Positions 1-28,065 of a stretch of 64,000 bases of DNA are shown in pieces. This DNA is from Candidatus Deferrimicrobiaceae bacterium (lineage in GTDB: Bacteria; Desulfobacterota; Deferrimicrobia; Deferrimicrobiales; Deferrimicrobiaceae). Made by a program: the position numbers and the translations under genes. The notes beneath the pieces are model-generated. The model worked only from the letters and a program-made list of their open reading frames with translations, searched no databases and was not told the DNA's origin. The first letter of the stretch is position 1. Every line of letters starts with the position of its first letter. Location: positions 9,611-73,610 of the forward strand of contig DASXVV010000011.1 in NCBI GenBank assembly GCA_036504035.1. The letters run 5' to 3'.

Positions 1-463
1 GGGACGACAGGGAAAAGCCGTCTCTCAGGAACAGGACCGCCAGGAGCACGCCGCCCGTAAGGCCCGCGAGGCCCGTCAAACCGGCCACCCCCCCGCTCGC
101 CGTGCGAAGCAACGCCTTGATCGGGCAGCCGATGAAGACCTCGCAGCCCAGCAGGATGAAGGCGCCGCCGACGAAATGGAGCAGCGTCGACGAGCCGCCG
201 CCGACCCGGAATTCCTTCGTGGAGAATGCCGCGAAGAAGGCGCCCAGCACGATGCCGAGCAGCTCTGGACGCAGGTAGCTTTGCGCAGCGCGCGCGTGAA
301 GCCCGATGCTTCCGGCGACGTTGACGAGGAAGCAGGAGGCGCACAGCCCGCTGGATGCGGGGTTCCCGAGAAGCGTCAGCGTCGCGGCCGCCAGCCCGAA
401 CAGGGCGCCCACGACCGCCAGCGACCACGCCTCCTCCGGATAGACCAGCAGCCGCCGGATCAT
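1..463 (-). CDS. Partial polytopic membrane protein, YeeE/YedE-like (putative sulfur-compound transporter). Only the N-terminal part is in the window; the gene continues past position 1.
   Basis: Reverse-complement translation from ATG at 463..461 gives MIRRLLVYPEEAWSLAVVGALFGLAAATLTLLGNPASSGLCASCFLVNVAGSIGLHARAAQSYLRPELLGIVLGAFFAAFS..., hydrophobic throughout with a conserved Cys-containing loop. Its ATG overlaps the stop of the upstream gene (ATGA). The ORF track does not list it because it runs off the window edge. Confidence 0.35.
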   Translation of the reverse strand, partial: MIRRLLVYPEEAWSLAVVGALFGLAAATLTLLGNPASSGLCASCFLVNVAGSIGLHARAAQSYLRPELLGIVLGAFFAAFSTKEFRVGGGSSTLLHFVGGAFILLGCEVFIGCPIKALLRTASGGVAGLTGLAGLTGGVLLAVLFLRDGFSLSS

Positions 464-861
464 CCGCAGCCCCCGTAGATGCGCCGGAACAGGAAGGAGG
501 CATCGGAGAGCGCCGCCGGCCCGGCATGGAGGCGTCCCGCCTTGAGATCCTTGACCCAGGCGTCGAGCCGGCGCTCGAACGCGCTGCCCAGGTAGCGGGT
601 GTCGGTCCGGTCGGCCAGCCGCGTGTCGGCCACGACGGCCGCCCGATATTGCGACAGCGCCGCGCCGACGTCCCCCCGCGCTTCCGCTTCCCGCGCCTTC
701 GACAGAAGCGATTGCGAAAACCCGGCATCCTGCGTCCTGCAGGCAGAGTCGCCGTCGACGGAAAGCGAAAAACGGCCGATCGCGGCCACGCGCCCCGCCC
801 CGGCCAGCGACAGGACGGCCAGCACCGCCGTCAGTCCCGTCAATTTACGCCCGTGCAACAC
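460..861 (-). CDS. Small secreted hypothetical protein
   Basis: 133-aa ORF with an N-terminal signal-like hydrophobic stretch (MLHGRKLTGLTAVLAVLSLAGAG). It is translationally coupled to the genes on both sides. Confidence 0.4.
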   Translation of the reverse strand: MLHGRKLTGLTAVLAVLSLAGAGRVAAIGRFSLSVDGDSACRTQDAGFSQSLLSKAREAEARGDVGAALSQYRAAVVADTRLADRTDTRYLGSAFERRLDAWVKDLKAGRLHAGPAALSDASFLFRRIYGGCG

Positions 862-881
862 GTCTATCGCCTCGCCGTCTT

Positions 882-1826
882 TCAGAATTTTTCGTAGGGG
901 GGCAGGTTGGCGCGACGGGCCATCCGCCTGAGAACGTCGAATTCTTCGTCGCGCGTGGGGGAATAACCGCGAACCCCATCCCTCTTTAATACGTTGAGAC
1001 GCTCGCCTTTTACTTCAGCGAAATCGCCGGGCGACAGCCGGAGCAACGCTTCCCGGAGCCGGTTGGCCTCTTTGGGGTCGAGCTGCGGCAGGGCGAAGAA
1101 GGTGCAGTTGGGAACGGGCGGGGATTTCGCGAGCACGCGGAAATCGGACATCCGCACCTTGCCCTCGGCCGACATCCGTTCGAGGTCGCCCACCTTGACC
1201 GCGCCGGCGTCGACCGCCCCGTAGAGGATCGAATAGACCACTTTCTCGTGCTGCCAGGCGCCGGGCAGGAAGGTGTAGCTGCCGAACAGTTTCTCGGGAT
1301 CGAGCCCCGCGGAGAGCAGCGTGTCGTACTGCGTCAGGTATCCGCCGGGCGAAAGGACGGGCCCGAAGACGATCTTCTTGCCGGCCAGGTCGGCCAGCGT
1401 GCGGGCGGGGGAATCGGAGCGGACCACGATGAGCCCGCCGGTATCGCGCCCCGTGTCGAGCTTTTCCTCGCGCGCGAGCAGCGTGCAGCCGACCTTCTCC
1501 TTGACGTTGACATAGATGTAGCCGTTGGCCTGGACGGCATCGAACCGCTTCTGCCTGGCCATCTCGACGAAATCGGTGGTGTTGACGTGGGATACGACGA
1601 CCTTGCGGCCGAGCTCCTTCTCGAGCCAGGCCCCGAGCACCTCGAAGCGCGCCTGGTTCTCCTCGAGCGAGTTGCACACCTGGAAGCCGATCCGCAAGGG
1701 GGGCTGCGGAGGGCGAAGAAGGGCCTTTGCCGAGACCAGCACGGTTCCCAGCAGAAGCAACGCGAATACGGCTTTGGATACTCTACTCAACCCGGACGAT
1801 TCCCAGACCCGGCACGACCTTGCCAT
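882..1826 (-). CDS. Periplasmic substrate-binding protein, PhnD/SsuA/transferrin-like family (ABC-type, phosphonate/sulfonate class)
   Basis: 314-aa ORF with a signal peptide. The overall sequence pattern fits PhnD-type binding proteins (LRIGF...TDF....G..D). A TTG at 1790..1788 would also give a clean signal peptide (SRVSKAVFALLLLGTV) and would remove the 44-nt overlap with the upstream gene. Confidence 0.55.
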   Translation of the reverse strand: MARSCRVWESSGLSRVSKAVFALLLLGTVLVSAKALLRPPQPPLRIGFQVCNSLEENQARFEVLGAWLEKELGRKVVVSHVNTTDFVEMARQKRFDAVQANGYIYVNVKEKVGCTLLAREEKLDTGRDTGGLIVVRSDSPARTLADLAGKKIVFGPVLSPGGYLTQYDTLLSAGLDPEKLFGSYTFLPGAWQHEKVVYSILYGAVDAGAVKVGDLERMSAEGKVRMSDFRVLAKSPPVPNCTFFALPQLDPKEANRLREALLRLSPGDFAEVKGERLNVLKRDGVRGYSPTRDEEFDVLRRMARRANLPPYEKF

Positions 1827-3459
1827 CGTGAACCGGAATATTTGTTGTCCCCTTGGGGGACCCGATCTTCGTGCCCTTCAGGACGACCGCTGCCGGACCG
1901 GACAGGTGGACCGCGTTGCGCCCGTAGCCGGCGATCTCGCCGCCAGAAAGGACCACGCTCCCCTTCGAGGCGCTGATCCCGTCGACCCGGCTTCCCGACG
2001 AACGGAATGACTCCATTGTAACATCGCCTTCGAGCAGCGAGAACGCGGCGAGCCCGGAATCGTCGACCGACACCCCGGTGATCCGCGCGGTCCCTTCCTG
2101 GACCGACAGCGGGACGTACATCCGCGAGAAGCGTCCCGGCCCGAAGCTCGCGCGGCTGTCGCGGAGCCGGATGCCGTACCACCCGGTGTCGCGCATCTCG
2201 ACCTTCGCCAGCGACACGGCGCTCCGGAACAGGTTGACGCCGGAGACCGCGTCGCGGACCGACAGCCCGTCGATGCGGACCGTGGCGTCGCGCCCGCGCA
2301 TGGCGCTTTGGACCTCATCGACCGAGATCCGGGCCAGCGACACCTCGGATTCCTGGAACTGCAAGCCCCGGCAGCAGCGGAAGATGCGGATGTCGGTGGC
2401 CGATAACCTGCTGAAGTGGGCGTGCAGCCCCCGATAGCTCCCGGCCACATCGACGTGTTCGAGCACGTTCTCGCCCTGGTCGCTCGCCATGAAGCTGATC
2501 GAATCCCACAGCCCCCGGGTGTCGCCCTCGGACGGGAAAAAGCCGATCGGCTTCTCTTTCGTGCCGCGCGCAGCCAGGTTGCCCTGGAGAAACAGGCCGT
2601 TCTCGCCGATGCCGTCGCCGTCCGTGTCGCGGAAAGTGAAGAAAAGGCGGGTGCCGGGCAAAAGCGTCAGCGTCGTTCCCGGCGCAACCCGGATGACCCC
2701 GTCGACGACGATGTCGCCCGAGAGCGTCCGGTCGTGGTCGATGAACGTGTCGCTCATCCGGGCGGCAGTCGACGGCGGCCGGGGGACGGCAAAGGAAACC
2801 GGGGGCGGCGGCGCGACGTCGGGATCCCACGCGACGGCGTCGGCCTCCTCGTTTCCCTCGGACACGAAGGATGCGGGGGCCGGGCCGGCGCCCGCAAAGC
2901 GGACGAATCCCACGCCGTTGCCGGCGGCCCGGAGCATTCCGGCCGGTTCGGTCCGGAGCCGCCCGCCGGGGAAGAGCGCGACGCCGGTGCGGCAGTCGCC
3001 CACGGACAGACGGCCGGAGACGGCGGCCTCTCCGCCAGCCAGCACCGTCAACCCCGCTTCGGCGCCGGTGATCGCACCGCCGGAAAACAGGGCGCGGCCG
3101 CCGTCGACCACGATCCCGCCGGTGCGCCCCGGAAAGCGGAAAGCGGCGTTGTCGGCCGCGAGCGTGCCCCGAACGACGATCTCGACGCCCCCGTAGAAAT
3201 ATTCGGGATCGACCTTGGTGGAATCGCTCCGGTCGAACAGGAAGACCGTTCCGGGCGCCGCGGACAGCGTCGCACCGGGAAGCACCATCACGTCGTCGGT
3301 GACATGGACCTCTCCCGAGACGCGCGTCTCCCCCGACAATTTTCCGGAAAGGGTTCGCCCCGCCGGGCCGACGCCGGGCGCCTCTGCCGCGCGGGATGCC
3401 GCGGAGACGAAGAGCAGTGCCGGCAACGCCAGCGACGCGGCGACGACGCGGAAGCGCAT
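1783..3459 (-). CDS. Secreted right-handed parallel beta-helix repeat protein
   Basis: 558-aa ORF with a signal peptide (MRFRVVAASLALPALLFVSAASRA). Gly/Ser/Thr/Val/Asp-rich beta-strand repeats (repeated LSGG.., VVDG.., ITG.. segments) typical of pectate-lyase/NosD-like beta-helices. It overlaps the upstream gene by 1 nt (TGATG). Confidence 0.5.
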   Translation of the reverse strand: MRFRVVAASLALPALLFVSAASRAAEAPGVGPAGRTLSGKLSGETRVSGEVHVTDDVMVLPGATLSAAPGTVFLFDRSDSTKVDPEYFYGGVEIVVRGTLAADNAAFRFPGRTGGIVVDGGRALFSGGAITGAEAGLTVLAGGEAAVSGRLSVGDCRTGVALFPGGRLRTEPAGMLRAAGNGVGFVRFAGAGPAPASFVSEGNEEADAVAWDPDVAPPPPVSFAVPRPPSTAARMSDTFIDHDRTLSGDIVVDGVIRVAPGTTLTLLPGTRLFFTFRDTDGDGIGENGLFLQGNLAARGTKEKPIGFFPSEGDTRGLWDSISFMASDQGENVLEHVDVAGSYRGLHAHFSRLSATDIRIFRCCRGLQFQESEVSLARISVDEVQSAMRGRDATVRIDGLSVRDAVSGVNLFRSAVSLAKVEMRDTGWYGIRLRDSRASFGPGRFSRMYVPLSVQEGTARITGVSVDDSGLAAFSLLEGDVTMESFRSSGSRVDGISASKGSVVLSGGEIAGYGRNAVHLSGPAAVVLKGTKIGSPKGTTNIPVHDGKVVPGLGIVRVE

Positions 3460-5289
3460 CAGTTCACGGCGGGGGCGAACCGGAGCACGGCCGGCGTGAG
3501 GCGGCCTCCCCGGGCCTGGACCACGACGGGGCCGATGCGTTCTTCCCCTACGCCGCCGGGGACGCCGGGGACGGACTTGCGCAGGAACGCCGCGAACTCG
3601 CCCTCCCCCGCCTGCGACACGGAAAACGCGCCCTGCGCGGAAACGACCGACGAACGCGCCAGCGGACGTCCGATCGTCTCTCCGGGACGATAGAAATAGA
3701 CGATGTACCCCTCGGCCGGAGAACCGCCGAGGGAGGCGGTCCCGGAGAGGAGGTTTCCCTCGGCGGAAGCCTCGGGATTTCCGGATGCCTCCTCCTGGCC
3801 GAGGTAACCGCGCTTCTCGAAAAGCGGAATCTCGAGATCGGTCACGGTCGATGCCACGACCTCGACCGGAGCATCGGGCCAGACGCCGAACAGCCCTCCC
3901 TCCTCGACCACGCCGATGACGGCGCCGCCGGGACGCTTCCGGGCGGCGGGCAGGTATTTCCCCGGGCGGAGGACCAGCAGCGCCGCACCCGTGGCGCCGG
4001 TCAGCGCCGACGCCTCCCCGGGCCCCCGGAAGTCGGGGGAATCGGGACGGAAGGCCTGGACGGTGGCTCCGGCGACGGGAATGCCGTCGAGCGTGACGCG
4101 CACGAGAAACCCGGACCGATTCGCGGCGGCAGCGCGCACAGTCTTGCCGGCCGGCGCCAGGATGGCGGGCAAGGCAAGGACGGCGCGCTCCCCCGCCTCG
4201 ACCGTGACCGGGTTGCGTCCCGGAAAAGCGAACAGCGACCCGGGACCTGTCCCCTTGCGGCCCGACACGAACCAGCGTCCGGGCGGTACGGGGAGGCGAT
4301 AGAGGCCGTCCGCGTCGGTGACGGCGCTCGCGGCGAAATCGTCGGGGAAAAGCCCGTCGGCGGGCGACGCCAGCGCACGGACTTCGGCGCCGGGAACCGG
4401 CGACTGCCCCCGGACGAAGACGCCGCGAATCTCTGCGCCGGTTGCGGGCGGAAGCGCGAGCATCGGCGCAAGCTTCGCCCGGCCGATCCCCGGAAGGCTG
4501 CCCCCGTCGTAGATTTTCGTGCGGGCGGATTCTTCATTGCGGGTGCCCCACCAGTTGCCGCCGGCATCGATGTCCTCGGCGTGGAGGTCGCCCAGCCGCA
4601 GGTTGAAGCGGCGGTTGGCGTAGATCGCGTTTTCGCGGATGAGGGATGCACTGTCCTTCGAGTGCAGGAAGATCCCGTCGCCGTTCCCGTAGACCAGGTT
4701 GCGCCGGATCTCGTTGCGGCAATCGCGGAAGTTGATGCCTCGGATCTCGTTGCACGTGAAGACCGAGTCTTCGATGCGCACTTTCGAGTTGCCCATCCGC
4801 ATCCCTTCCTCGTTGTCCCGGAACGTGCAGTGCGAGACGGAGAGCTCCGAGAAATGGGTGTGGAAGGCGTAGCGGGCGCCCTCGAAGATGCACCATTCGA
4901 ACCGACTGCCCGTGCTGAACGTGAACAGCAGCTTGTCCCATCCCCCGGCGAAGGCCTTGCCGCCGGACGGGGAAAACAGGATGGGCGCGTCTTCGGTCCC
5001 GGCGGCGACCACGCGACCTTCGATCTTGAATCCGCCCCCGACGAACCCTTCGTGCTCCTCGCCCGCCGCGTACGTGCGCGGCTCGAACAAAACCCGCGTC
5101 CCGGGGGCAAGCGTCAGCGTCGCCCCCTTGCGGACGTGGACGATGCCGTCGACGCGGACGTCGCCGTGCCATTCGGTGTCTTTCTCGATGACGACGACGG
5201 AGGGAACCGACGGCCCGCCTTTCGGGACATGCGCACAGGCAGCGAAAGTAAGCGCCAGCGCGAGAACCGTCAGGACACGCAGCTTCATC
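3459..5289 (-). CDS. Lipoprotein made of a parallel beta-helix domain followed by carboxypeptidase-regulatory-like (CarbReg) domains
   Basis: The true start is MKLRVLTVLALALTFAACAH (lipobox), not the R-rich N-terminal extension of the 750-aa ORF. The N-terminal half (KDTEWHGDVRVDG...GNWWGT) is paralogous to the 16904-17773 protein. The C-terminal half carries CarbReg-type repeats (LPVPPGRWFVSGRK...). Its ATG overlaps the DUF362 gene stop. Confidence 0.55.
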
Positions 5290-6235
5290 CCTCGGCGATC
5301 CGCCAGGCGGAGGGGGACGAAAACCAGAGGCCGGAATCGAGCGCCTTCTTGAGGTGGGCCACGTCGGCCGCCTTGAAGCCGAAGATCCGGTCGGCGGCGG
5401 CGAGATCGGCCGCCAGCGCGTTCCCCGAGGCGAACACGGTGTTGAACGCCTTGACGTCGGCCAGGTTGCCCCCGGACGGACCGTTCCGGAGCAGCACGCG
5501 CGTGGCGTCGATCACGGTCAGGCGGGCGGGGATGCGCCGCTGGAGATCGACCAGGCAGTCGGCCAGGTTGAAGTGAAGCTGCCCGCGGTTGCCGCCCATG
5601 ATGCCCATCATGTTTTTCAGCCCGAGCGTGATGCCCGCCAGCGAGTGGTGCTTGGCGACGGGGAGGTTGATGATCTTGTCGGCCTCGAGCGCGTCCCGGT
5701 AGAGTTCCCATTCCTTCATCGCCGTCGCTCCGGGGATGACGGTGCGGACGAACTTGCGATCCTCGACGTGGTAGATCTGCACGCTCCGCCCGGCGCCCGA
5801 CTTGGCGGCAAATCTCTCGACGGCATCCTGGATGCCGCTGTTGACGTAGCAGCGTCGCGGCTCGTTGCAGGTGCGGTCAAAGACGCGCACCGACTTTGCC
5901 CCTGCGGAAAGACACAGCTCGGCGACGGCGACGACCAGCTCCGGGTCGGTGTCGGCGGCCTGCTCGGGCTTGCGGTCCCAGCCGATGTTGGGCTTGAGTA
6001 CGACGACGTCGCCGCGCGAGACGAAGGCGCCGATGCCGCCGACGGCCGCGATCGCGCGACGCACATTGGCGGCGACGCCCGGCCCCGACGCGGCCCCCAC
6101 GACGGCGCCGCCCTTCGGATGCGGCGCGGGTGCGGCCTTGGCAAACGCCGGGATCGACCCCGAGGCGGCGGCCAGCCCCGCGGCCCCTCCGGCCAGCTTG
6201 AGAAAATCGCGTCGATTCATTCCGCCACGGTCCAT
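5285..6235 (-). CDS. Tat-exported DUF362 domain protein
   Basis: 316-aa ORF with a twin-arginine motif (NRRDFLKLAGGAAGLAAA). The DUF362-type core (VVLKPNIGW...NPELVVAVAELCL.AGA) is shared with the paralog at 15942-16877. Confidence 0.6.
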   Translation of the reverse strand: MDRGGMNRRDFLKLAGGAAGLAAASGSIPAFAKAAPAPHPKGGAVVGAASGPGVAANVRRAIAAVGGIGAFVSRGDVVVLKPNIGWDRKPEQAADTDPELVVAVAELCLSAGAKSVRVFDRTCNEPRRCYVNSGIQDAVERFAAKSGAGRSVQIYHVEDRKFVRTVIPGATAMKEWELYRDALEADKIINLPVAKHHSLAGITLGLKNMMGIMGGNRGQLHFNLADCLVDLQRRIPARLTVIDATRVLLRNGPSGGNLADVKAFNTVFASGNALAADLAAADRIFGFKAADVAHLKKALDSGLWFSSPSAWRIAEG

Positions 6236-6266
6236 GCGTACCCTTTCGTGTCCGGCGCGCCGCGCC

Positions 6267-20048: not shown

Positions 20049-21490
20049 TTCGCCCGATCCTCTCTTTGTGCATCCGGGACGCCCGTGCCTGGAATCCGGG
20101 ACGTTTTCCAATCTTTATAGTTTATCCGATCCTGGAGATATTCTCCGGGATACCCCTCGTAGGTCCGGGTCGGCACATCGTAGCCGTCGACCAGCGAACC
20201 GATGTTTGCCGCAGGCCCCTTGGCCGCCATCTCGGCGGTGTCTTTCTCCCCCCACCAGTTGCCGGTCGCTTCGATGGTCCCCTCCCCCACCGGGACGTCG
20301 TTCTCCTCCTGCGTGGCCTTCGTTCCCGCAACCATTCCCTTCCCTTGCCCGGCCTGGGTCCTGGAGCGGGCAAACGCTCCCCTTCCCGGTTTCCGGCCGA
20401 CCCGCACTTCCCAGTCGTGCGACATGTTGTCCAGCTTGACCTGGATGTCATTTTTGTCGAAGTTGTTGCCATTGATGCGGGCATAGGACGACAGCGTCAG
20501 GTAGACGCCGGTCTCGTTCCGGGAGAAGTCGTTCGAGGCGATCCTCGGCGCGGACATCTGGGAGCACGCGATCCCGTTCTGGTTGCCGACAAGGCGGTTC
20601 TGGACGATGTCGGGGCTGGACGACCTGAAGCAGAAGATGCCGGCCCCGTTATTGTCGAACACGTTGCCCTCGATCTTGGGCGAGGAAAAATTCTCGATCC
20701 ACAAGCCGGTCGCATTGCGGAACAAATGATTACCCCGGACCGCCATCCCGTTTCCCACGTTGTTCAGCGCGATCCCGACGGTGCAGTTGTCGATCCGGTT
20801 CCCCTCGGGCGCGGGTGCGGGAGACCCGAAACTGATGCCGCTGTTGCATTCGCCGATGGCATTGCCCGAAATGACGGGGGCCGAGTTCCGTTGCGCGATG
20901 ATGCCGGACTTGTCGCACTTCCGGATGGTGTTGCCGACGATCGAAGGGGTGGAGCCTATCTGGCAATCGATCCCGTGCGTCGACATGTCGGTGATCGTGT
21001 TCTTCGAGATGTTCCCCGACATGTCCTTCCCGATGAAGACGCCGGTGATCATCCTCCGGATCGTGCACTCCGATATTTCGGGAGCACCGCCGTGGACCTG
21101 GACCGTCTCTGCATCGGTCACGACCGCCCGGTGCAGCACGCTGTTGTCGCCGGGCCCCGCGAGCAACAGGCCTTTCCAGTCGCCCCGCGCGGGGGCCGGT
21201 TCGGCGGATCCGAAGCGGATCGGCCGGTCGGAAGTGCCGACGGCCGACAGGATCCCCGACACTTCGAGCCCGGTCCCCTTGACGAAAAGGATCTCGGCGC
21301 CCGGGCGGATGGTCAGCCGGACGCCCGCCCTGACGGCCACGGTTTGCTCTACGAGCACGCGACCTTCCCATACGGCATCGTTGTCGATCGGGCCGGATAT
21401 CTTTCGGACTGGCCGATCATCGGCGGCGGCCGCCAACATCGCAACCGCCATCGCCAAAAAGGCCGCTCCCCATGCCAACCAATGCCTCAT
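20045..21490 (-). CDS. Periplasmic NosD-like parallel beta-helix (PbH1) repeat protein
   Basis: Start at MRHWLAWGAAFLAMAVAMLAAAA. More than ten consecutive ~22-aa PbH1 repeats (..IS.N.I....GI..), plus GNWWG. Confidence 0.65.
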   Translation of the reverse strand: MRHWLAWGAAFLAMAVAMLAAAADDRPVRKISGPIDNDAVWEGRVLVEQTVAVRAGVRLTIRPGAEILFVKGTGLEVSGILSAVGTSDRPIRFGSAEPAPARGDWKGLLLAGPGDNSVLHRAVVTDAETVQVHGGAPEISECTIRRMITGVFIGKDMSGNISKNTITDMSTHGIDCQIGSTPSIVGNTIRKCDKSGIIAQRNSAPVISGNAIGECNSGISFGSPAPAPEGNRIDNCTVGIALNNVGNGMAVRGNHLFRNATGLWIENFSSPKIEGNVFDNNGAGIFCFRSSSPDIVQNRLVGNQNGIACSQMSAPRIASNDFSRNETGVYLTLSSYARINGNNFDKNDIQVKLDNMSHDWEVRVGRKPGRGAFARSRTQAGQGKGMVAGTKATQEENDVPVGEGTIEATGNWWGEKDTAEMAAKGPAANIGSLVDGYDVPTRTYEGYPGEYLQDRINYKDWKTSRIPGTGVPDAQREDRAK

Positions 21491-22551
21491 CGATCGCCTC
21501 CCGAGCGTGTGAGCATATAGACATGCCCGTCGCGCGACCCGCACAAGACAGACCCGGACGGCCCCGGCGCTACCGCCTGAACGGCGCCCCCGGCCGCGAA
21601 CCGCGCGCGCTCGCGTCCGGTCGCGGGGTCGAGAAAATACACGCCGCCCCCGTTGTCCCCGAACACGACCGACCCGCCCGCGAGCACCGGCGACGAATAG
21701 ATCGGCCCGGCGGCCCGGAAGGTCCATGCGGACGACCCGTCGGCCGGGCGCAGGGCGTGAAGCATCCCGTCGCAGTCGCCGATGAACAGCAACCCTTCGA
21801 CGAGGAGCGGCGCGGAATATTCGATCCGGCTCCCGGTGTCCCGGATCCAGGCGACGCGCCCGCTCCCGGCGTCGACGCAGAAGATCTTTCCGTTCCGGCA
21901 ACCGAAATAGACGCGACCGCCGTACGCGACCGGCCCGCTGTTGACCGCATCGCCCGCGCCGAACCGCCAGCGCATCGCGCCCGTGGCGGGATCGAACGCG
22001 TAGAGGAATCCGTCGCCGGAGCCCGCGAAGCCCGCGGGATCGGGCCGGCATCGGATCGGGCCGCCCGTCGGCAGTTCCCACGCCTTCCGGCCCGAAGCGC
22101 TGTCGAGCGCGTACACGATCCCGTCGAACCCGCCGACCAGCACGTTATTCCCGGCAAGGACGGGGCTGGATTGGCGATGGTCGTCGAACGCCGAGGGGGG
22201 CATCTCGAAGGACCAGGAAAGTCGGCCGGAAAGGCCGTCAAGGCAGAACAAGCGCCGGTTCCAGGCGCAGGCGTAGACCATCCCGCGCGCAGCCAGCGGC
22301 GCCGAATCGATGAAATCTCCCGCATCGAAGGACCATCGCATGCGTCCCGTTTCCGTGTCCAGCGCGTAGAGGGAATGGTCCCACGACCCGGCGTAGACGA
22401 GATCGCCGGCCAAGGCCGGTGCCGAGTCGACGAAGCCGCCGGTCCCGAATCTCCAGAGTTCCTTCACCGTGCAGGAGGCCGGGGACGACGCCTTGAGCGT
22501 ACAGGCCGCCAAGAAAAGGATCGCAATGAGTGAGGGAAGACGATGCGTCAA
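21487..22551 (-). CDS. PQQ-like beta-propeller repeat lipoprotein (BamB-like fold)
   Basis: A TTG start gives M-THRLPSLIAILFLAACT with lipobox LAAC. Repeated G.VYAGS.D..LYALD..TG..RW motifs. ATGA overlap with the downstream gene. Confidence 0.6.
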   Translation of the reverse strand: MTHRLPSLIAILFLAACTLKASSPASCTVKELWRFGTGGFVDSAPALAGDLVYAGSWDHSLYALDTETGRMRWSFDAGDFIDSAPLAARGMVYACAWNRRLFCLDGLSGRLSWSFEMPPSAFDDHRQSSPVLAGNNVLVGGFDGIVYALDSASGRKAWELPTGGPIRCRPDPAGFAGSGDGFLYAFDPATGAMRWRFGAGDAVNSGPVAYGGRVYFGCRNGKIFCVDAGSGRVAWIRDTGSRIEYSAPLLVEGLLFIGDCDGMLHALRPADGSSAWTFRAAGPIYSSPVLAGGSVVFGDNGGGVYFLDPATGRERARFAAGGAVQAVAPGPSGSVLCGSRDGHVYMLTRSGGDR

Positions 22552-22628: not shown

Positions 22629-23735
22629 TCACCGGACCTCGGAGACCTCGACATCGAAACCGGTAAGCCGGTCGCCGCCGCGGATCTTGACCGAATGCGC
22701 GGCATTCCCCTCGTACCGGCCGTAGAAGTCGCCCGGCACCGGGGAGCCGCCGTAGCCGCTGCGGGCGCCGAGGTAATAGTTCCCGGGGATCGGCACCGGC
22801 AGCCGGTAACGGCCGTCGTCACCCGTGACCTCGGAGATGAAGATCGGCCGGTTGAGCAGGTCGGGGTTGTCGTAGAGCGCCGCATAGATCCCGCGCCGGG
22901 GCCTGCCGTCCAAACCGAGGATGCGCCCCTCGATGAAGGACGGGGCGGCGGCGGACGCGGAATAGGTGGGCGTGTTCCTCAGCCGGAGCGTCGTCGCAGG
23001 GAGCGTGACCCGAAGCGGGTCGCCCGGGACGACGTCGACCGGGTTCCCCGGGTAATAGCCGAACGCGTCACCCTTGCGCAGCGGCCCGGCGATTCCGCCG
23101 GAGGCGCGCTTGCGCGCGACCAGGTAATAACGCCCCGGCGGAAGGTCGAGGAAGAAGGCGCCGTCGACCCCGGTCGGCGCCGAAGCGGCGAAGCCCATGT
23201 CGCGGAAGGCGGTGTCGGTCCGGAGGTAGGCGAAAACATGCGCATCGGCCAGCGGGGCGCCGTCGGCCAGCACCACGCCCGACACGCCGGCTGCCGTCGT
23301 CTCCTCTCCTGCCGCGGCAGGGGGCGGCCCGACGGCCTCGACCAGGCCGAGGAAGATCTCGCGGGGAGGCCCCGCGGAAAGGTAGACGGGGTTGCCGCCG
23401 AAGAAGGAGAAGCGGTCGCCCGGCTGGACGGGCCTGGCGTAGTTGCCGTCCTTGCGCCAGTGGGCCATCAAAAAATACCGGCCGGGCGGGATCGCGGAAC
23501 GGGCGATGCCGTCGGGCCCGGTCGATGCCGACCGGACGGCGCCGGGATCGTCGGGCGAGATGCCGGCACGCCATTCGACACGGGCGCCGGCGATCGGCGC
23601 CTCTTGCCAGGCGACCCGGACCGCGACCTCGACCGGCAGGTCGCCGTGCGCGGCGCGAAGCGTGGATCGGCCGGCGCAACCGGCGAGAGAGAGCGCCAGG
23701 ACGATCAGGATCCCGGTGCTGAGGCCCTTGCGCAA
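22629..23735 (-). CDS. Lipoprotein with three carboxypeptidase-regulatory-like domains
   Basis: MRKGLSTGILIVLALSLAGCAG (lipobox). Repeats include IPPGRYFLMAHWRKDG and LPPGRYYLVARKRASGG. Confidence 0.55.
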   Translation of the reverse strand: MRKGLSTGILIVLALSLAGCAGRSTLRAAHGDLPVEVAVRVAWQEAPIAGARVEWRAGISPDDPGAVRSASTGPDGIARSAIPPGRYFLMAHWRKDGNYARPVQPGDRFSFFGGNPVYLSAGPPREIFLGLVEAVGPPPAAAGEETTAAGVSGVVLADGAPLADAHVFAYLRTDTAFRDMGFAASAPTGVDGAFFLDLPPGRYYLVARKRASGGIAGPLRKGDAFGYYPGNPVDVVPGDPLRVTLPATTLRLRNTPTYSASAAAPSFIEGRILGLDGRPRRGIYAALYDNPDLLNRPIFISEVTGDDGRYRLPVPIPGNYYLGARSGYGGSPVPGDFYGRYEGNAAHSVKIRGGDRLTGFDVEVSEVR

Positions 23736-23742
23736 GCGACGT

Positions 23743-24492
23743 CTACCAGACCCGGAACACCATGATGTCGATGCCTTCCTTGCGCTCGCCGTCCTTGAGG
23801 ACGACGCCGGTCGGATTGATCGAGCCCTCGTCGTAGCGCCCGTAGAGATCGCCGATGCGGGGCGGGCCGCCGAAGCGGTCGCGCGCGGCCAGGTAATAGG
23901 TGCCGCCTTTCGGCAGGAAGATGACGAACTTCCCGTCGGGGCCGGTCCGCTCGCTCACGTACTTGGGACGCTCGGACATCTGCACGTAAGTGTATGCATG
24001 GACCCGGGTCCCCTGCACCGGGTTGCCCTCGGAGTCGCGGACCGTTCCGGCTACCGCGGTGGTCCATTCCTTCGGGGGGATGAAGGAGGACTTGTACTCG
24101 GCATCTTCCTTGACGTTCATCACGAGGTTGAGGACGATCTTGCCGTCGGTGCCGACCTTGATGTCGACCGGCTCGCTGCGGCGGTCGCCGGCGACCAGCG
24201 GCCCGCCGTTCTCGTTGGTGGCGCGGCGGCGGGCGACGACCGTGTACTCGCCGGGCGGCAGCTCGACCGAGAAGGCGCCGTCCGCCAGCGTCGAGAGCGG
24301 AGTGATCACCTCGGCCGGGCCATGGGGCGTGACGCCCTTCTTGTAGACATAGAGATACGCATTGTCGGCGGGGGCGAAGATGGTGCCGGTTAAGCCGGGC
24401 CTGCCGGCGACCTTGGGGGTCGCGCACCCCTCGATCATGAACGCGGCCATCAGGACCATGGCGGCGGTGAACAGCGTCGAGCGAACCTTCAT
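23743..24492 (-). CDS. Lipoprotein with carboxypeptidase-regulatory-like domains
   Basis: The true start is MKVRSTLFTAAMVLMAAFMIEGCAT. Repeats include LPPGEYTVVARRRAT and LPKGGTYYLAARDRFGG. The upstream part of the 542-aa ORF is artefact. Confidence 0.5.
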   Translation of the reverse strand: MKVRSTLFTAAMVLMAAFMIEGCATPKVAGRPGLTGTIFAPADNAYLYVYKKGVTPHGPAEVITPLSTLADGAFSVELPPGEYTVVARRRATNENGGPLVAGDRRSEPVDIKVGTDGKIVLNLVMNVKEDAEYKSSFIPPKEWTTAVAGTVRDSEGNPVQGTRVHAYTYVQMSERPKYVSERTGPDGKFVIFLPKGGTYYLAARDRFGGPPRIGDLYGRYDEGSINPTGVVLKDGERKEGIDIMVFRVW

Positions 24493-24512
24493 CCGGGGAA
24501 CCTCCTTATGGA

Positions 24513-25481
24513 TCAACCGTAGAACGCCTGGAACAGGTAGCCGCTGGCCAACGCCGCCGTCATGCCGACGGCCAGGTAGAGAACGAATGCCCGCCGCTCG
24601 TAGACGCCCGCCAGCGTCGCCAGCGCCGGGATGCTGGTGACGGGGCCGCCGACCAGCATGGCCATCCCCGCCCCCGGGCTCATGCCGGTGGCCAGCAACC
24701 CCTTGATGATGGCCGGTGCGGCCATCTGGTGAACCGGCAAGGGCACGGACAGGAGCGTCGCGAACAGGATCGACAGCGCCGACCGGCGCCCAAGAACGGG
24801 TTCGACCAGATTCAGCGGCAGGTAAAAGGTGATCAGCGCCTGGATGACCAGCGCGGCGAGCAGGAACTTGCCCACCTCGAACGCCATGTCGCGGAACCGT
24901 TCGAGGAAGAAGACGAACCGGTTCCCCCGGTCGTGCACATGCCCCTCGTGGCCGTCGGCGCTCTTGAAGCAACCGGCGTTCACGATGTCTTCGAAGCCGG
25001 GGCGGACCTTGCCGTCGCGGGCATACATTTTCTCGACCATGAAGCTGGTACTTGAAAGGACGCCGCGGGATGACAGCCACCGCGCCGTGAATCCTGCGGA
25101 AAGGCCGACCATGGCCGCGATCGCGAGTTTCCACAACGCCCACACCCAGCCGAGCTGCCCGACGGTCAGGATGAAAGCATCGGGCGCCATGAGGGGCGAG
25201 GTGATGAGGAGCGCCAGCACCGGTGCAATTGGGACGCCCGCCGCCGACAGCGCGATCACGACGGGCATGATGCCGCAGGAGCACAGTGGGGAAACGAGCC
25301 CGGCGCCGACGGCCACGAAGATGGCGGCCCGGTCGTACCGGATGAGCGAGGCCCTGATTCGCCGGTCCCATTTGAAGGTTTTTATGAGGGCTGCGAAGAC
25401 GACGCCGCCGAGATAATAAGGCCAGAGCGTCCGGGCCTGGGCCAGGAAAAGGTCTTTGATGATCGGAAGGTCGTTAAGCAC
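24513..25481 (-). CDS. DUF318/ArsP-like permease
   Basis: 322-aa polytopic membrane protein with the conserved CSCG motif (VSPLCSCGIMPV) typical of DUF318/ArsP permeases. Confidence 0.55.
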   Translation of the reverse strand: MLNDLPIIKDLFLAQARTLWPYYLGGVVFAALIKTFKWDRRIRASLIRYDRAAIFVAVGAGLVSPLCSCGIMPVVIALSAAGVPIAPVLALLITSPLMAPDAFILTVGQLGWVWALWKLAIAAMVGLSAGFTARWLSSRGVLSSTSFMVEKMYARDGKVRPGFEDIVNAGCFKSADGHEGHVHDRGNRFVFFLERFRDMAFEVGKFLLAALVIQALITFYLPLNLVEPVLGRRSALSILFATLLSVPLPVHQMAAPAIIKGLLATGMSPGAGMAMLVGGPVTSIPALATLAGVYERRAFVLYLAVGMTAALASGYLFQAFYG

Positions 25482-25487
25482 GGCCGG

Positions 25488-26450
25488 CTACCTGTAAAGA
25501 TTGTAGGGGAGCACTTTCTTCCCCTTGGCGTCGCGGTACAGCACCCGCTCGCCGGTGATGTTCTCGAGCGCCCGCGCCGACCACTCGCGCACGTTGGGGT
25601 CGGCGTCTTCGAGCGTCTTGCGCAAGGCGCCCTCGGAGGGCTTCGCGATGAGGATGCCCAGCGACCAGGCGCACTCGACGCGCACGCCAGTCTCGCCCTC
25701 GAGCAACCAACGCTCGAGCGGCGCATAGCACTTGACGGTGCCGCATTTGGACAGCGCCCGCGCCGCCGCCGCCTGGATCACAGGATCTTTTTCGGTGTCG
25801 AGGACGGCAAGCAGCGCGTCTTCGGCCCCCGTGTCCTCGATGTCCTCGAGCGCACGAAGCATCGCCTTCCGGGCCCGGCCCGACGATCCGGGGAGCGCCG
25901 AAACGATGGCCGGCGTCGACTTCTTGCCGATGTTGATGAGCGCGCGCGTGGAGGCCTTGACCACGCTCTCGGTGCGATCGGAAAGCGCCCCCACCAGCAC
26001 GGGAATGGAGCCCGGATCGCGGATCTCGCCCAATGCCCACGCCGCGATATACCGCCGCGACCGGTCGGACTTGAGCATCTCCGTCAGCCGGGGAACCGCT
26101 TCTTTGGCCCGGATCTCGCCCAACAGCCCCGCGGCCAGCTCGACCTTGGCCGGATCCGGGTCATCGAGCGCCGCCATCATCGGGGATTCGAGCTTGGGCC
26201 CCATCGCCGTCATGACGCGGATCAGCCGCTCGTTGTCTTCGGTCGCGAAATATCCCAACAATGCCCGGATCTTGCCCGGATCGCCCGCCTTTGCCTCTTC
26301 GACCGCCCGTTCGGCCTCGGGAGAGAGGGGGGTCCCCGGCATCGCTGTGTGGAGGACGCGACGCTCGCCGCCGGCCGTACCGCACGCCGCGAAGAGGAGG
26401 CAGAAGAACCCGATGCCGATCCACCGCACCCTTGACCGCGTCGACTTCAT
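25488..26450 (-). CDS. HEAT-repeat (PBS-lyase-type) lipoprotein
   Basis: MKSTRSRVRWIGIGFFCLLFAACG (lipobox). Repeated A.ALGEI.D...IP.L..AL.D motifs. Shine-Dalgarno GGAGGG. Confidence 0.55.
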   Translation of the reverse strand: MKSTRSRVRWIGIGFFCLLFAACGTAGGERRVLHTAMPGTPLSPEAERAVEEAKAGDPGKIRALLGYFATEDNERLIRVMTAMGPKLESPMMAALDDPDPAKVELAAGLLGEIRAKEAVPRLTEMLKSDRSRRYIAAWALGEIRDPGSIPVLVGALSDRTESVVKASTRALINIGKKSTPAIVSALPGSSGRARKAMLRALEDIEDTGAEDALLAVLDTEKDPVIQAAAARALSKCGTVKCYAPLERWLLEGETGVRVECAWSLGILIAKPSEGALRKTLEDADPNVREWSARALENITGERVLYRDAKGKKVLPYNLYR

Positions 26451-26460
26451 TCACCCTCCG

Positions 26461-26504
26461 CCAGAAAATGAAAAGCCCCGCCGCACGTGAACCGGCAGCG
26501 GGGC
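26461..26504 (-). terminator. Putative intrinsic terminator (minus-strand sense) downstream of the CRTAC1-like gene
   Basis: GC stem GCCCCGC...GCGGGGC at 26475-26504, followed on the minus strand by UUUUCAUUUU at 26474-26461. It lies between the stop of 26545-28065 and the start of the HEAT gene. Confidence 0.4.
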
Positions 26505-26544
26505 TAGGATCTTTCGCAGGAACCGCGTCTTGAAGGCCTTGGCG

Positions 26545-28065
26545 CTATTCGGTTTCCCGAACTTCGTAGGCCGCGCCGGCCGTGACATTTTTCGTGACCT
26601 TGATCCCGCTGGGGAACGTGACCTCGACCGTGTAGCTGCCACCCGCGGGGGCGCCGAAGTGAACTTCGAGCGGCGGGCAACTGCAGAATCCGTTGGAGGT
26701 CATCACCTGGCGGAAGCCGAGCAACTTGCCGGAGGCGTCGAACAGCTTGACGGTCGCGCCCACCGCATCGTGGCTGGACTTGGGCCGGTCGGACGGATCG
26801 GCCCAGGTCGTGCCGACGGCCTTGACCTTGATCCAGTTGCCGTCGTTCTGGTCGTTGCGGTAGAGGCGGGGGCCGACTTCCCAGTTCATCACGACCAGGT
26901 CCTGGTCGCCGTCGCCGTCGACGTCGAAGAACGCCACGCCCTTGGTGCGGATGGTCTCGAGCTTCATGGACGGGAACTTGTCGACGATATCGGTGAAGGT
27001 CAGGTTTCCGTTGTTGTGATAGAGCTGGTTCGAGAACTTGCAGTCGCCCTCGTACATGCTGAGGTAGCCGCTATGGTCGGTGTCGGCGAAGCCGGTGCCC
27101 TTGCCCCACCCGTTGTGGGCGGTGCCGGACTCTTTCGTGATGTCCTTGAACTTGCCGTTGCCCAGGTTGAGCATCATCTTGTTGCCGCCGACGTAGTTCG
27201 AGATATACATGGAGAGCCGGCCGCTGTTGTTGATGTCGCCCACGCCCGTGCCCAGCGTCCAGGCGCCGTTGGTGACGCCCGCGGTCTCGGCCACGTCGGT
27301 GAAGGTGCCGTCGTGGTTGTTGTGGTAGAGCAGGTTGCGGCCCACGCCGGGGTACCGGCCGGTGGAGACGTAGAGATCGTCCCACCCGTCGCCGTCGTAA
27401 TCGAACGCCACGGCGCTCCAGGACCAGGTGCCGGTGCCCACGCCGGCCTTGTCGGTGACGTCGACGAACTTGACGTCTTCGGGCCGTGGGCCGTTGGTCT
27501 CGTTGCGGAACAGCACGTTGTGCTGGCCCACGCCGTAGTTGGAACAGTAGATGTCGAGGCGACCGTCGTGATCATAATCGAACATCGTGGAACCGTAGGT
27601 GAACGCCTTGATGCCGGTTCCCGACGTTTCGGTGATGTCGATGAACTTCACGTGCCCGGGGGTGCTGGCGTTGAAATAGAGCCGGTTGGACTCGATCTCG
27701 TAGCGGCCGCCCTTGGCGACGTAGAGCTCGGGCTTGCCGTCGTTGTTGACGTCGCCGAAGGAAGACCCCATGGCATAGCCCGTTTCGGACAAGCCGGCCT
27801 CTTCGGTGACGTCCTTGAACTTGCCATTGCCCAGGTTAAGGTAAAGGTGGCTCGGGCCCCCTTTATTGGAAATGAAGATGTCCTGGAGGCCGTCTCCGTC
27901 GACGTCGGCGATTGCGACACCCTTGTTGCGCCCGTTTAGGGCCATGCCCGAGTCGGACGTGATGTCGACAAACGGCTCTGCCATCGAGATCGTGGCAAAC
28001 CCGGCGACAACCATGGCCGAGGCAAACGCGTACTTCCAGATTTGTGTCTGGAGTCCCATCCTCAT
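26545..28065 (-). CDS. FG-GAP/VCBS repeat protein with ASPIC/UnbV-like domain (CRTAC1 family, paralog 2)
   Basis: 506-aa ORF with a signal peptide and DVDGDG/FG-GAP repeats. Shine-Dalgarno AAGGAG; the second ATG (28059) may be the true start. Third-position GC is clearly lower than in neighbouring genes. Confidence 0.6.
   Translation of the reverse strand: MRMGLQTQIWKYAFASAMVVAGFATISMAEPFVDITSDSGMALNGRNKGVAIADVDGDGLQDIFISNKGGPSHLYLNLGNGKFKDVTEEAGLSETGYAMGSSFGDVNNDGKPELYVAKGGRYEIESNRLYFNASTPGHVKFIDITETSGTGIKAFTYGSTMFDYDHDGRLDIYCSNYGVGQHNVLFRNETNGPRPEDVKFVDVTDKAGVGTGTWSWSAVAFDYDGDGWDDLYVSTGRYPGVGRNLLYHNNHDGTFTDVAETAGVTNGAWTLGTGVGDINNSGRLSMYISNYVGGNKMMLNLGNGKFKDITKESGTAHNGWGKGTGFADTDHSGYLSMYEGDCKFSNQLYHNNGNLTFTDIVDKFPSMKLETIRTKGVAFFDVDGDGDQDLVVMNWEVGPRLYRNDQNDGNWIKVKAVGTTWADPSDRPKSSHDAVGATVKLFDASGKLLGFRQVMTSNGFCSCPPLEVHFGAPAGGSYTVEVTFPSGIKVTKNVTAGAAYEVRETE

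Follow-up and report, generated by a model that had tools for sequence, protein, structure and literature searches.

A DUF362–polyferredoxin gene pair within a 26-gene array of Candidatus Deferrimicrobiaceae: a possible quinone-linked periplasmic oxidoreductase module

What might be the function of 26 successive genes whose products include beta-helix proteins, carboxypeptidase-regulatory-like (CarbReg) proteins, two twin-arginine DUF362 proteins and a polyferredoxin (PFD), and onto which no known catalytic subunit maps? This array runs along the minus strand from position 28065 to position 1 of the window, our term for the whole 64,000-nt stretch of Candidatus Deferrimicrobiaceae DNA analysed here. 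The window is part of the 290-kb metagenome contig Ga0376481_000072 (JGI 3300035523), and about 74 kb of the source genome could be read. An initial annotation had taken the array for one 28-kb system lacking a recognisable enzyme and had asked whether its genes are co-conserved elsewhere. Searches of Pfam, NCBIfam, the PDB and the literature again found no known catalytic subunit or characterised cluster that maps onto the array, and neighbourhood scans of genome and metagenome loci did find co-conservation. The picture of one 28-kb system did not survive: the array is a mosaic of nested modules, with a universal core, a shell shared by several lineages and family-restricted additions, and no single indivisible system. 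On sequence grounds, we propose that it represents a Candidatus Deferrimicrobiaceae-specific expanded version of a widespread quinone-linked periplasmic oxidoreductase module in which DUF362 would be catalytic, a reading to which we assign roughly even odds (about 0.5).

A widespread DUF362–PFD gene pair

The core comprises DUF362 and PFD genes, which in the window are the following (here and below, domain calls come from Pfam and NCBIfam profile scans of the array proteins):

15942..16877, minus strand: g11, Tat-signal (twin-arginine translocation) DUF362 protein, 311 aa, with a predicted LarA-like fold; proposed catalytic subunit
12917..14497, minus strand: g13, PFD, a NapH+NapG-fusion polyferredoxin, 526 aa (Fer4_5/Fer4_7; partial NapG/NapH NCBIfam matches)
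5285..6235, minus strand: g21, second Tat-signal DUF362 paralogue, 311-316 aa (DUF362 4.9e-46; TAT signal)

The two twin-arginine DUF362 proteins of the initial annotation are g11 and g21; both carry twin-arginine signals and match PF04015 and no other Pfam family. They share 46% identity, and the KPN, AKHH, LKN, H and D motifs are retained in g21. Orthologues of g11 are 58-85% identical over 120 matches, from metagenome-assembled genomes (MAGs) labelled Deferrimicrobiaceae and Nitrospirota. A twin-arginine motif is present in 84 of 88 DUF362 proteins from the loci described below and in 113 of 131 representatives. The wider DUF362 family amounts to 6456 representative clusters at E <=1e-3 and 417 at E <=1e-30.

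We scanned species-representative genomes with a DUF362 alignment, obtained at least 598 matching stretches and examined 84 loci (individual loci are given below as L numbers). A PFD adjoins DUF362 in 81 of these 84 by tblastn. In 79 loci a PFD open reading frame (ORF) and a DUF362 gene are co-directional, and in 68 of these the PFD is directly downstream, at -60 to +150 nt. In four of the five loci without a PFD ORF, the sequence runs out at the DUF362 gene or no more than ~400 nt from it, and two of these four still give a partial tblastn match to PFD; only L065 has ~3 kb downstream. All-versus-all clustering of neighbouring ORFs found no further partner conserved around simple DUF362-PFD pairs. 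Among the carriers are MAGs labelled Desulfobacterota/Deltaproteobacteria, Nitrospirota, Acidobacteriota, Zixibacteria, Ignavibacteria, Caldithrix, Planctomycetes and Verrucomicrobia, and the minimal pair is also found in two isolates, Geomonas paludis Red736 (L052) and Desulforhopalus sp. IMCC35007 (L056).

In 14 of the 84 loci the pair sits amid CarbReg genes and small and large beta-helix genes, with an OpuAC-like lipoprotein gene in 13 of the 14. This shell, which also includes a PQQ-propeller protein, an ArsP permease and an AAA protein with a dead Walker A motif, recurs with the core in several lineages. In ~70 of the 84 loci the core stands without it. The initial annotation had offered either the DUF362 or the beta-helix proteins as the functional core; the adjoining PFD makes DUF362 the best-backed part of that proposal, whereas the beta-helix proteins belong to the shell.

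The initial annotation had also described g13 as a NapH-type polyferredoxin with a CGWxCP motif. Indeed, g13 carries CGWFCP at residues 82-87 and CRNLCP at 223, both 96-100% conserved in 80 sequences. All 28 of its cysteines are 85-100% conserved in 80 orthologues, enough for the seven [4Fe-4S] clusters that we predict. Two CxxCxxCxxxC groups are predicted to be cytoplasmic, and four periplasmic cluster motifs are predicted after an internal twin-arginine helix. The twin-arginine motif itself, SRRGVML at 308-314, precedes a moderately hydrophobic helix (residues 308-327 are SRRGVMLAAAAGAVSVPFFG), and R310 is at least 80% conserved. In NCBIfam, the N-terminal part resembles NapH (79-81 bits vs cut-offs of 213-234) and the C-terminal part NapG (101 bits vs 269), so that g13 falls outside NapG and NapH proper; it also gives a partial NosR match (50.7 bits vs 1000) and, in its NapH part, a weak CcoG match (16.3 bits vs 316.7). 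The features of the PFD family are present: NapH-type CX3CP motifs in an N-terminal membrane domain (Fer4_5 match) and, as predicted from sequence, an internal twin-arginine motif immediately ahead of the final transmembrane helix, with a four-cluster periplasmic domain beyond it.

The PFD of the delta proteobacterium MLMS-1 needs both Sec and Tat for insertion and has been described as fusing NapH and NapG, with three clusters on the cytoplasmic side and four on the periplasmic side (Tooke et al. 2017, PMC5449189); that study concerns membrane insertion only, and the passages searched name no partner or function. As described there, the MLMS-1 protein has the same seven predicted clusters, NapG-like four-cluster domain and pre-helix twin-arginine motif as g13. 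More broadly, NapH-like proteins act as modular conduits between membrane electron pools and periplasmic oxidoreductases (Meheust et al. 2021, PMC8238504). The systems of that study share a NapH-like membrane Fe-S module with g13, but their relay is a flavinylated FMN-binding domain and their partners are NirS, ExaA, NosZ or PceA, whereas g13 has a NapG-type tetra-cluster domain as its relay and is paired with DUF362. The array differs from the NapGH system of periplasmic nitrate reductase in having neither NapA nor NapB, and domain scans found no molybdopterin subunit within 74 kb of the contig. An architecture in which a membrane Fe-S protein of NapH type feeds a periplasmic partner exported by Tat is already known; previously undescribed features are the partner family with its LarA-like fold, the fused relay and the shell.

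A LarA-like fold of DUF362 and its possible meaning

When an AlphaFold2 model of the DUF362 protein (pLDDT 89) was searched with Foldseek, the top 19 matches were all LarA-family chains, and the modelled protein has the fold of the LarA cofactor-binding domain. DUF362 and the LarA N-domain belong to a common Pfam clan, and the Pfam DUF362 hidden Markov model (HMM) matches a genuine Loigolactobacillus LarA at 26.1 bits, above its gathering score, with LarA residues 82-245 corresponding to profile positions 18-171. The link between the two families consists of these fold searches and this broad HMM. PDB sequence searches with g11 and a DUF362 profile returned nothing meaningful, and a database search with a LarA profile recovered close LarA orthologues only (73-99% identity), with no bridge to DUF362.

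Among 136 diverse Tat-DUF362 relatives, at least 129 keep K82, N84, K191, H193, K203, N204, G207, R213, H217, D239, G248 and P249, with H193 present in all 136 and K203 in 134. We compared these residues with LarA, checking the LarA sequence and residue numbering against 5HUQ and taking residue roles from the literature. The DUF362 stretch LEADxLINxPIAKHH...LKN aligns gap-free with LarA AAEADLLISEGFIESH...GGRK. In three local alignments, none of them statistically significant, H193 corresponds to the catalytic H174 of LarA and K203 to the cofactor-tethering K184, and the H193/K203 spacing equals that of H174/K184. In these non-significant alignments, R89 adjoins the position of the phosphate arginine R75, and the H108 position is taken by C124 or D121. 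From sequence, H217 is a candidate stand-in for the nickel ligand H200. Because the alignments are statistically non-significant, these equivalences are tentative, and it is uncertain which residues correspond to H108 and H200; a lone catalytic histidine is known from some LarA homologues.

An Fe-S cluster on Cys109, Cys124 and Cys130 of DUF362 was considered and rejected as a family feature. The three cysteines appear invariant in close relatives but are unconserved more widely (present in 111, 69 and 46 of ~136 relatives, respectively), arguing against a cysteine-ligated cluster.

Building on the established gene content, co-conservation, motifs and fold similarity, we infer an electron path, a cofactor, a catalytic role for DUF362 and all of the shell roles that follow. 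In our best-supported model, the window organism duplicated DUF362, expanded the shell and added permeases, lipoproteins resembling substrate-binding proteins (SBPs), the dead AAA protein and a UbiU/UbiV-like pair. DUF362 (g11, duplicated as g21) would take up a cofactor in the cytoplasm before Tat export, which would explain why it requires Tat, and would then serve as the periplasmic catalytic subunit; the cofactor is possibly of the nickel-pincer/pyridinium type, on the invariant K203/H217/H193 site. PFD would combine a NapH-like quinol-dehydrogenase domain with a NapG-like periplasmic four-cluster ferredoxin, the latter exported via the internal twin-arginine motif, and its seven [4Fe-4S] clusters would connect DUF362 with the quinone pool in either direction. 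The beta-helix, CarbReg, propeller, FG-GAP, HEAT and SBP-like lipoproteins could make up a variable shell for substrate binding or scaffolding, the ArsP and YeeE permeases may transport a small, possibly thiol-reactive molecule, and the Walker-A-dead AAA protein and UbiU/UbiV-like pair may be cytoplasmic accessory or maturation factors. By pairing a membrane Fe-S wire with a LarA-folded exported protein, the module is probably a new kind of periplasmic redox enzyme. The further step, that Tat-DUF362 proteins are a large family of periplasmic LarA-fold enzymes with a nickel-pincer/pyridinium cofactor on K203/H217, coupled to quinone via PFD, we regard as doubtful.

The nickel idea draws on gene context. 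Using LarB, LarC and LarE from a Lactiplantibacillus lar operon as tblastn queries against 164 related loci, we found matches in L080 and L082 only, both from Smithella-like MAGs (L080 4567-15759; L082 4563-17261). In both, the nickel-pincer cofactor synthesis genes larB, larC and larE immediately precede an operon of AKR-Fer4, DUF6599, Tat-DUF362 and PFD genes. The nickel-uptake genes NikR and CbiMNQO follow PFD in L080, where a ZnuA/ABC-3 transporter also flanks the pair; an Nramp gene lies ~3.4 kb further downstream in L082, past an oppositely oriented flavin oxidoreductase gene. This context is suggestive of a link between DUF362-PFD and nickel. Sulfur or metal handling, raised in the initial annotation, was a guess and is one still, the sole new pointers being these nickel/nickel-pincer (NPN) genes and hgcAB near some relatives.

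Several observations weigh against the proposed oxidoreductase and its LarA connection. Profile-profile comparisons of Tat-DUF362 with LarA (hhalign with 1, 3 and ~23 LarA sequences) were non-significant with partly inconsistent registers, an HMM of the Tat-DUF362 subfamily gave no significant LarA match, and one alignment places the nickel ligand H200 within a LarA-specific insertion that DUF362 lacks. Genuine LarA proteins match both Lar_N and LarA_C in Pfam, but no LarA_C was found in g11 or g21, so that the two-domain architecture is missing. LarA, at ~424 aa, is also longer than DUF362 (311 aa, ~270 residues when mature), and LarA enzymes are cytoplasmic, redox-neutral racemases or epimerases, whereas DUF362 is predicted to be Tat-exported and is paired with an Fe-S electron chain. 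We know of no precedent for a hydride-carrying pincer cofactor passing single electrons to Fe-S clusters. No lar genes turned up in 162 of the 164 loci, nor anywhere in the window, the 8 kb of contig past its start (L087) or the readable 74 kb. L080 and L082 are syntenic and so count as one lineage, and their lar genes may serve AKR-Fer4, because the AKR family is a demonstrated user of the NPN cofactor. The shell occurs without an adjacent core in L139, L140 and L164, and the core usually occurs without the shell. The literature yielded no functional study of DUF362 (PF04015, COG2006) or of Deferrimicrobia, and every component is known here from sequence or models.

The pair merits attention all the same: with at least 598 matching stretches, it occurs in anaerobes that drive iron, sulfur and carbon cycling in sediment and groundwater, and we found no published function for it. 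If DUF362 is catalytic, it would represent a new class of quinone-linked periplasmic oxidoreductase. If it carries a nickel-pincer-type cofactor, it would bear on which enzymes use the cofactor in organisms without LarA, at a time when the field is seeking non-LarA users; it would be the first extracytoplasmic pincer-cofactor enzyme and the first to be coupled to respiratory electron transport, would account in part for the retention of larBCE in many anaerobes that lack LarA, and would make the shell in the window a substrate-capture apparatus for a substrate that is possibly polymeric or mineral-bound. The hgcAB genes beside some relatives hint at a possible, environmentally relevant link to mercury methylation. 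The two cultured carriers, Geomonas paludis Red736 and Desulforhopalus sp. IMCC35007, make the hypothesis directly testable.

Shell genes, family-restricted additions and rival explanations

The other genes of the array and the adjoining redoxins are as follows:

26545..28065, minus strand: g01, secreted FG-GAP/ASPIC protein, 506 aa, first gene of the array (FG-GAP_3 1.6e-43; UnbV_ASPIC 8.8e-7; signal peptide)
25488..26450, minus strand: g02, HEAT-repeat lipoprotein, 320 aa (HEAT_2 1.1e-29; lipobox LLFAAC)
24513..25481, minus strand: g03, ArsP_1-family permease, 322 aa (ArsP_1 1.4e-32)
23743..24492, minus strand: g04, CarbReg lipoprotein, 249 aa (CarboxypepD_reg 7.6e-11; lipobox MIEGC)
22629..23735, minus strand: g05, CarbReg lipoprotein with three tandem domains, 368 aa (CarboxypepD_reg 1.7e-14; lipobox SLAGC)
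21487..22551, minus strand: g06, PQQ_2/BamB-like beta-propeller lipoprotein (Beta-prop_ACSF4 4.3e-69; PQQ_2 8.7e-45)
20045..21490, minus strand: g07, large secreted beta-helix protein, 481 aa (Beta_helix 2.5e-30; NosD 4e-25)
18960..20048, minus strand: g08, triple-CarbReg protein, 362 aa (CarboxypepD_reg 6.9e-16)
17791..18963, minus strand: g09, triple-CarbReg protein, 390 aa (CarboxypepD_reg 3.6e-11)
16904..17773, minus strand: g10, small secreted beta-helix protein, 289 aa (Beta_helix 7.1e-13; NosD 7.1e-6)
14494..15936, minus strand: g12, FG-GAP protein, 480 aa (FG-GAP_3 2.1e-68)
11850..12920, minus strand: g14, triple-CarbReg protein, 356 aa (CarboxypepD_reg 8.4e-14)
11386..11853, minus strand: g15, small lipoprotein, ~154 aa, probably a short beta-helix (lipobox LLAC)
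10409..11380, minus strand: g16, cytoplasmic U32 protein, UbiU-like, 323 aa (Peptidase_U32 3.2e-27)
9618..10412, minus strand: g17, partner of g16 from an orphan family with UbiV-like features, 264 aa
8677..9555, minus strand: g18, cytoplasmic AAA+ protein with a dead Walker A motif, 292 aa (AAA 2.1e-14)
8029..8673, minus strand: g19, OpuAC-like small lipoprotein, 214 aa (partial OpuAC match, 1e-11)
6267..8009, minus strand: g20, fusion of a membrane-bound ResB-like N-terminal region with a periplasmic beta-helix, 580 aa
3459..5288, minus strand: g22, lipoprotein with beta-helix then CarbReg domains, 609 aa (NosD 1.5e-10; CarboxypepD_reg 2.3e-9; lipobox TFAAC)
1783..3459, minus strand: g23, secreted protein, probably a double beta-helix, 558 aa (Beta_helix sub-threshold, E 0.026)
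882..1826, minus strand: g24, PhnD-like periplasmic binding protein (Phosphonate-bd 2.6e-50)
460..861, minus strand: g25, small secreted protein of no known family, 133 aa (no Pfam match)
1..463, minus strand: g26, YeeE/Sulf_transp-like membrane protein, of which only the N-terminal part lies in the window (Sulf_transp E 0.0034, weak)
28388..29520, plus strand: two TlpA/AhpC-type redoxins, divergently transcribed (AhpC-TSA 2.4e-23 and 4.6e-23)

These assignments bear out the PQQ-like propeller, the HEAT lipoprotein, the ArsP-like permease, the pseudo-AAA protein and the two divergent redoxins of the initial annotation, the redoxins as AhpC/TSA-Redoxin genes. Others stand in part. Of the six beta-helix domains it counted, those of g07, g10 and g22 pass the threshold, that of g20 is just under it (1.7e-5, 25.0 bits vs a threshold of 25.9 bits) and that of g23 is sub-threshold; g15 has no Pfam match itself and is tied to the fold through its L089 and L170 homologues, which give a weak Beta_helix_4 match. 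Its six CarbReg lipoproteins all have the domain (g04, g05, g08, g09, g14 and g22), but the lipobox is clear in g04, g05 and g22 only and possible in g08. FG-GAP repeats are found in both supposed FG-GAP/ASPIC proteins, g01 and g12, with UnbV_ASPIC reported for g01. In the ResB-like/beta-helix fusion g20, the ResB match (2e-9) spans 38 residues only, at profile positions 417-454 of 486, and is no full-length ResB domain. The PhnD/YeeE pair keeps its binding protein, and its YeeE match is weak.

The shell extends beyond genomes that resemble the window. A reverse scan anchored on the OpuAC-like lipoprotein gave 292 metagenome relatives, and we analysed 24 loci of at least 8 kb. Beta-helix genes occur in 20 of these, CarbReg in 17, DUF362 in 15, PFD in 12, PhnD-like genes in seven, and ArsP and the dead AAA protein in six each (the latter at 53-56% identity). 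The order AAA-ArsP-CarbReg-beta-helix-PQQ-(beta-helix)-(DUF3467)-OpuAC-DUF362-PFD recurs with variation in L093, L110 and L147, and without ArsP in L149. The OpuAC-like gene typically comes immediately before DUF362, with small gaps; the g19 family has an invariant N-terminus, ACVG(K/R), and ERTGT and KFPAL motifs. In most of the 13 mapped extended loci, DUF362 or OpuAC-DUF362 is immediately preceded by a g10-type gene, and g23 cross-matches the beta-helix genes of extended loci by tblastn, while its L170 orthologue has a faint Beta_helix match. Orthologues of g08 in Nitrospirota-type loci are 58-68% identical, and orthologues of g09 are 54-63% identical. The g06-type propeller is fused to a beta-helix in L002-L004, g02 has homologues in L002, L006 and L089, and PhnD-like genes adjoin g19-like genes in L123, L158, L164 and L167. 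The permease g03 has a full-length ArsP_1 domain (PF03773; 113.5 bits vs a cut-off of 32.3, residues 9-318) and a vicinal CSC motif (Cys67 and Cys69), and recurs alongside the shell in L088, L089, L093, L110, L139, L140, L147 and L171.

In g18, GPLGQGIT replaces the Walker A motif GxxGxGK[ST], so the protein lacks the lysine of an active AAA+ ATPase. Six homologues from other lineages (L093, L110, L139, L140, L147 and L149), 53-56% identical, have GPLG(T/V)GIT at this site. The family has SD(C/I/T)(E/D)W in the Walker B position in place of the usual DE, and a C-terminal DCPHHYxF is invariant. The sequence of the family is suggestive of a conserved pseudo-ATPase or of a chaperone that binds metal or a cofactor.

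Extended loci often add DUF3467, DUF3047 and a large membrane protein. DUF3467 or DUF3047 genes occur in L003, L004, L007, L010, L013, L016, L017, L020, L025, L030, L033, L047, L110, L139 and L140. The DUF3467 gene, for a cytoplasmic protein of ~100 aa that could be a Tat-substrate chaperone, is usually just upstream of the small beta-helix/OpuAC-DUF362 genes. A secreted DUF3047 protein is encoded just after PFD in Desulfuromonadales-type loci, L013 and L110, directly after OpuAC in L139, and upstream on the opposite strand in L003 and L004. The mercury-methylation genes hgcA and hgcB lie within 10 kb of DUF362-PFD in six of the 84 genome loci (L007, L010, L013, L016, L033 and L047), and an hgcA homologue is near the pair or shell in three of the 24 metagenome loci (L111, L134 and L139). 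As a rule the hgc genes follow closely on DUF3047 and run on the opposite strand; the cap-helix motif N(V/I)WCAAGK is found in hgcA, which in five of the six genome loci has an hgcB-like ferredoxin as its neighbour (that of L033 ends in CC). DUF3467, DUF3047 and hgcA were also sought in the window and its extensions, and none of them is present.

The U32 pair, the ResB-like/beta-helix fusion, PhnD/YeeE and the divergent redoxins are additions found in close relatives only. L088, L089 and L170 keep the gene order of the window, including the U32 pair, the fusion (g20 is kept in L088 and L170) and the second DUF362. L170 also keeps PhnD-g25-YeeE, with a 137-aa gene at the position of g25, and the view of L089 ends at the AAA gene. 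Orthologues of g11 are 83% identical in L088 and 75% in L089; L170, found through a g17 homologue ~54% identical, has no g11-type gene. The FG-GAP gene g12 is a variable insert between DUF362 and PFD, shorter in L088 and missing from L089 and L170. Genes g14-g17 form a block in L088, L089 and L171, and a matching divergent redoxin pair is found in L088 and L171.

Of the UbiU/UbiV-like U32 pair of the initial annotation, the first member is confirmed as a U32 protein. The best NCBIfam match of g16 is UbiU, at 58 bits vs a cut-off of 440, and its cysteine pattern is C182-x6-C189-x12-C202-x34-C237, compared with CX6CX16CX38C in UbiU (PMC6747719). Its neighbour g17 gives no U32 sequence match and shows no similarity to g16 by BLASTP, although it is modelled as a TIM barrel and carries a CXnCX13CX3C motif of UbiV type. 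Like the genes of the O2-independent hydroxylase UbiU-UbiV (PMC6747719), g16 and g17 are adjacent genes for cytoplasmic proteins, overlapping by 4 nt; they differ in that no UbiT/SCP2 partner was seen, in being embedded among exported-protein genes and in occurring only in loci of close relatives. The g17 family has 127 members in 5.8 billion proteins, the few with a named source coming from Deferrimicrobiaceae or unclassified MAGs; an identical protein at NCBI is a hypothetical protein of a Candidatus Deferrimicrobiaceae MAG. In L171 (6264-18248), ArsP-CarbReg-g15-U32-g17 and the divergent redoxins adjoin a gene for a 2436-aa multihaem cytochrome, with no DUF362 or PFD, and in L089 (15860-20555) the same ArsP-to-g17 sub-block adjoins one for a 498-aa multihaem cytochrome. 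There are hints here of a Deferrimicrobiaceae-specific U32 module tied to extracellular electron transfer rather than to DUF362.

Could the array instead mature or traffic a metalloprotein? By analogy with NosR, NosD and NosL, which build the copper centres of NosZ, PFD would give reducing power while beta-helix, CarbReg and DUF362 proteins carried metal or sulfur to a metalloprotein or cytochrome elsewhere. The array shares with the Nos accessory proteins secreted right-handed beta-helices with Pfam NosD matches (g07, g10 and g22), a NapH-type Fe-S membrane protein and Tat export, and the partial NosR-type match of g13, the ResB-like module, the TlpA-type redoxins, the YeeE-like sulfur transporter and the multihaem cytochromes near the cluster in the source contig, L089 and L171 would all fit. 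So would the additional Pfam match of the CarbReg domains to DUF4198, a family linked to metal uptake. The NosD analogy of the initial annotation turned out to be weak, however: the NosD subfamily TIGR04247 scores 19.7 bits against a cut-off of 300, the array has no ABC domain and no NosZ, NosF, NosY or NosL, and Pfam/NCBIfam scans detected no FMN-binding domain. Nor does maturation suit a universal unit that consists of DUF362 and PFD only and has no conserved client gene near it, the invariant, enzyme-like set of Lys, His and Asp residues on a LarA fold, or a ResB match of 38 residues, and we consider it unlikely. A system for metal(loid) reduction or detoxification, in which PFD would resemble the NapH-type cupric reductase CcoG and reduce its target on the periplasmic side, the DUF362, Ig-like and beta-helix proteins would bind and ArsP would move the product, could draw on two ArsP_1 permeases, the vicinal CSC of g03, the nearby hgc genes, the metal genes flanking the pair in L080 and L082 and the CcoG match of g13. 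Yet that match is far below its cut-off, ArsP and hgcAB occur in a minority of loci, maybe of related lineages, the pair lacks ArsP, hgcAB and metal genes in ~70 of the 84 loci, and the unconserved DUF362 cysteines argue against a thiol-based metal site; this explanation seems to us distinctly unlikely.

The redox pair might also be a neighbour by synteny, not function, of an envelope, adhesion or polysaccharide locus whose beta-helix, CarbReg, FG-GAP and propeller products would act at the cell surface or on glycans. The beta-helix is a fold typical of glycan-active proteins and adhesins, ~30 kb of glycosyltransferase, flippase and sugar-nucleotide genes adjoin the array, and the shell can occur without the pair, as noted for L139, L140 and L164. 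Shell and core nevertheless recur together in differing orders in Nitrospirota, Desulfuromonadales-type genomes, Rokubacteria and other lineages, which is hard to explain by inherited synteny alone; the OpuAC-like gene keeps its place directly before DUF362; and Pfam scans detected no glycoside hydrolase, lyase or other carbohydrate-active enzyme domain in the array. We therefore consider an envelope locus improbable. Each of these three explanations accounts less well for the universal DUF362-PFD pairing than does a quinone-linked oxidoreductase module.

Array structure and borders

We modelled the genes by codon-position GC (GC3) frame analysis with start-site inspection, and the JGI calls for the same contig are near-identical. 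The DNA of the window is ~68% G+C, and spurious frames fill raw ORF lists for that reason. The initial annotation had counted about 27 co-directional genes, nearly all joined by overlapping stop and start codons. Our model retains 26 on one strand, with g26 running off the window start, but the overlaps were overstated: 10 of the 25 junctions show an overlap (1-4 nt), against 15 with a gap (3-116 nt). The packing is nonetheless operon-like and the co-directionality much beyond chance. A promoter/terminator scan found a sole promoter-like site at 28290-28261 on the minus strand, in the divergent intergenic region upstream of g01; terminator-like matches were weak and intragenic.

To the right of 28.1 kb, the two divergent redoxins are followed by genes for a methyltransferase, glycosyltransferases, YfhO, a flippase, sugar-nucleotide enzymes and several toxin-antitoxin pairs, content that beyond the redoxins is unrelated to the array. 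To the left, the cluster extends past window position 1 (L087 12997-21677, same contig), where the complete 352-aa YeeE-like gene and a second ArsP_1 permease are found. The same interval encodes a PqqD-like protein and a radical-SAM/SPASM maturase, a peptide-modification pair with no obvious precursor, together with a 278-aa unknown protein, an ECF sigma factor with a zf-HC2/CBM48 anti-sigma factor and a 1170-aa multihaem cytochrome.

Within the polysaccharide-synthesis region, positions 36900-40000 and 48000-52500 are dense in defence and toxin-antitoxin genes (HepT/MNT, RelB/ParE, AbiEii with a helix-turn-helix (HTH) gene, HipA with an HTH gene, and two AAA_14/DUF4143 ATPases), and G+C falls there to 55-60%. 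Positions 61683-63999 hold a minus-strand ORF of 633 aa that belongs to no Pfam family. It is immediately preceded on that strand by a gene for a multihaem cytochrome c (Cytochrome_C7/c3), which starts beyond the window end and of which the window covers only the C-terminal part.

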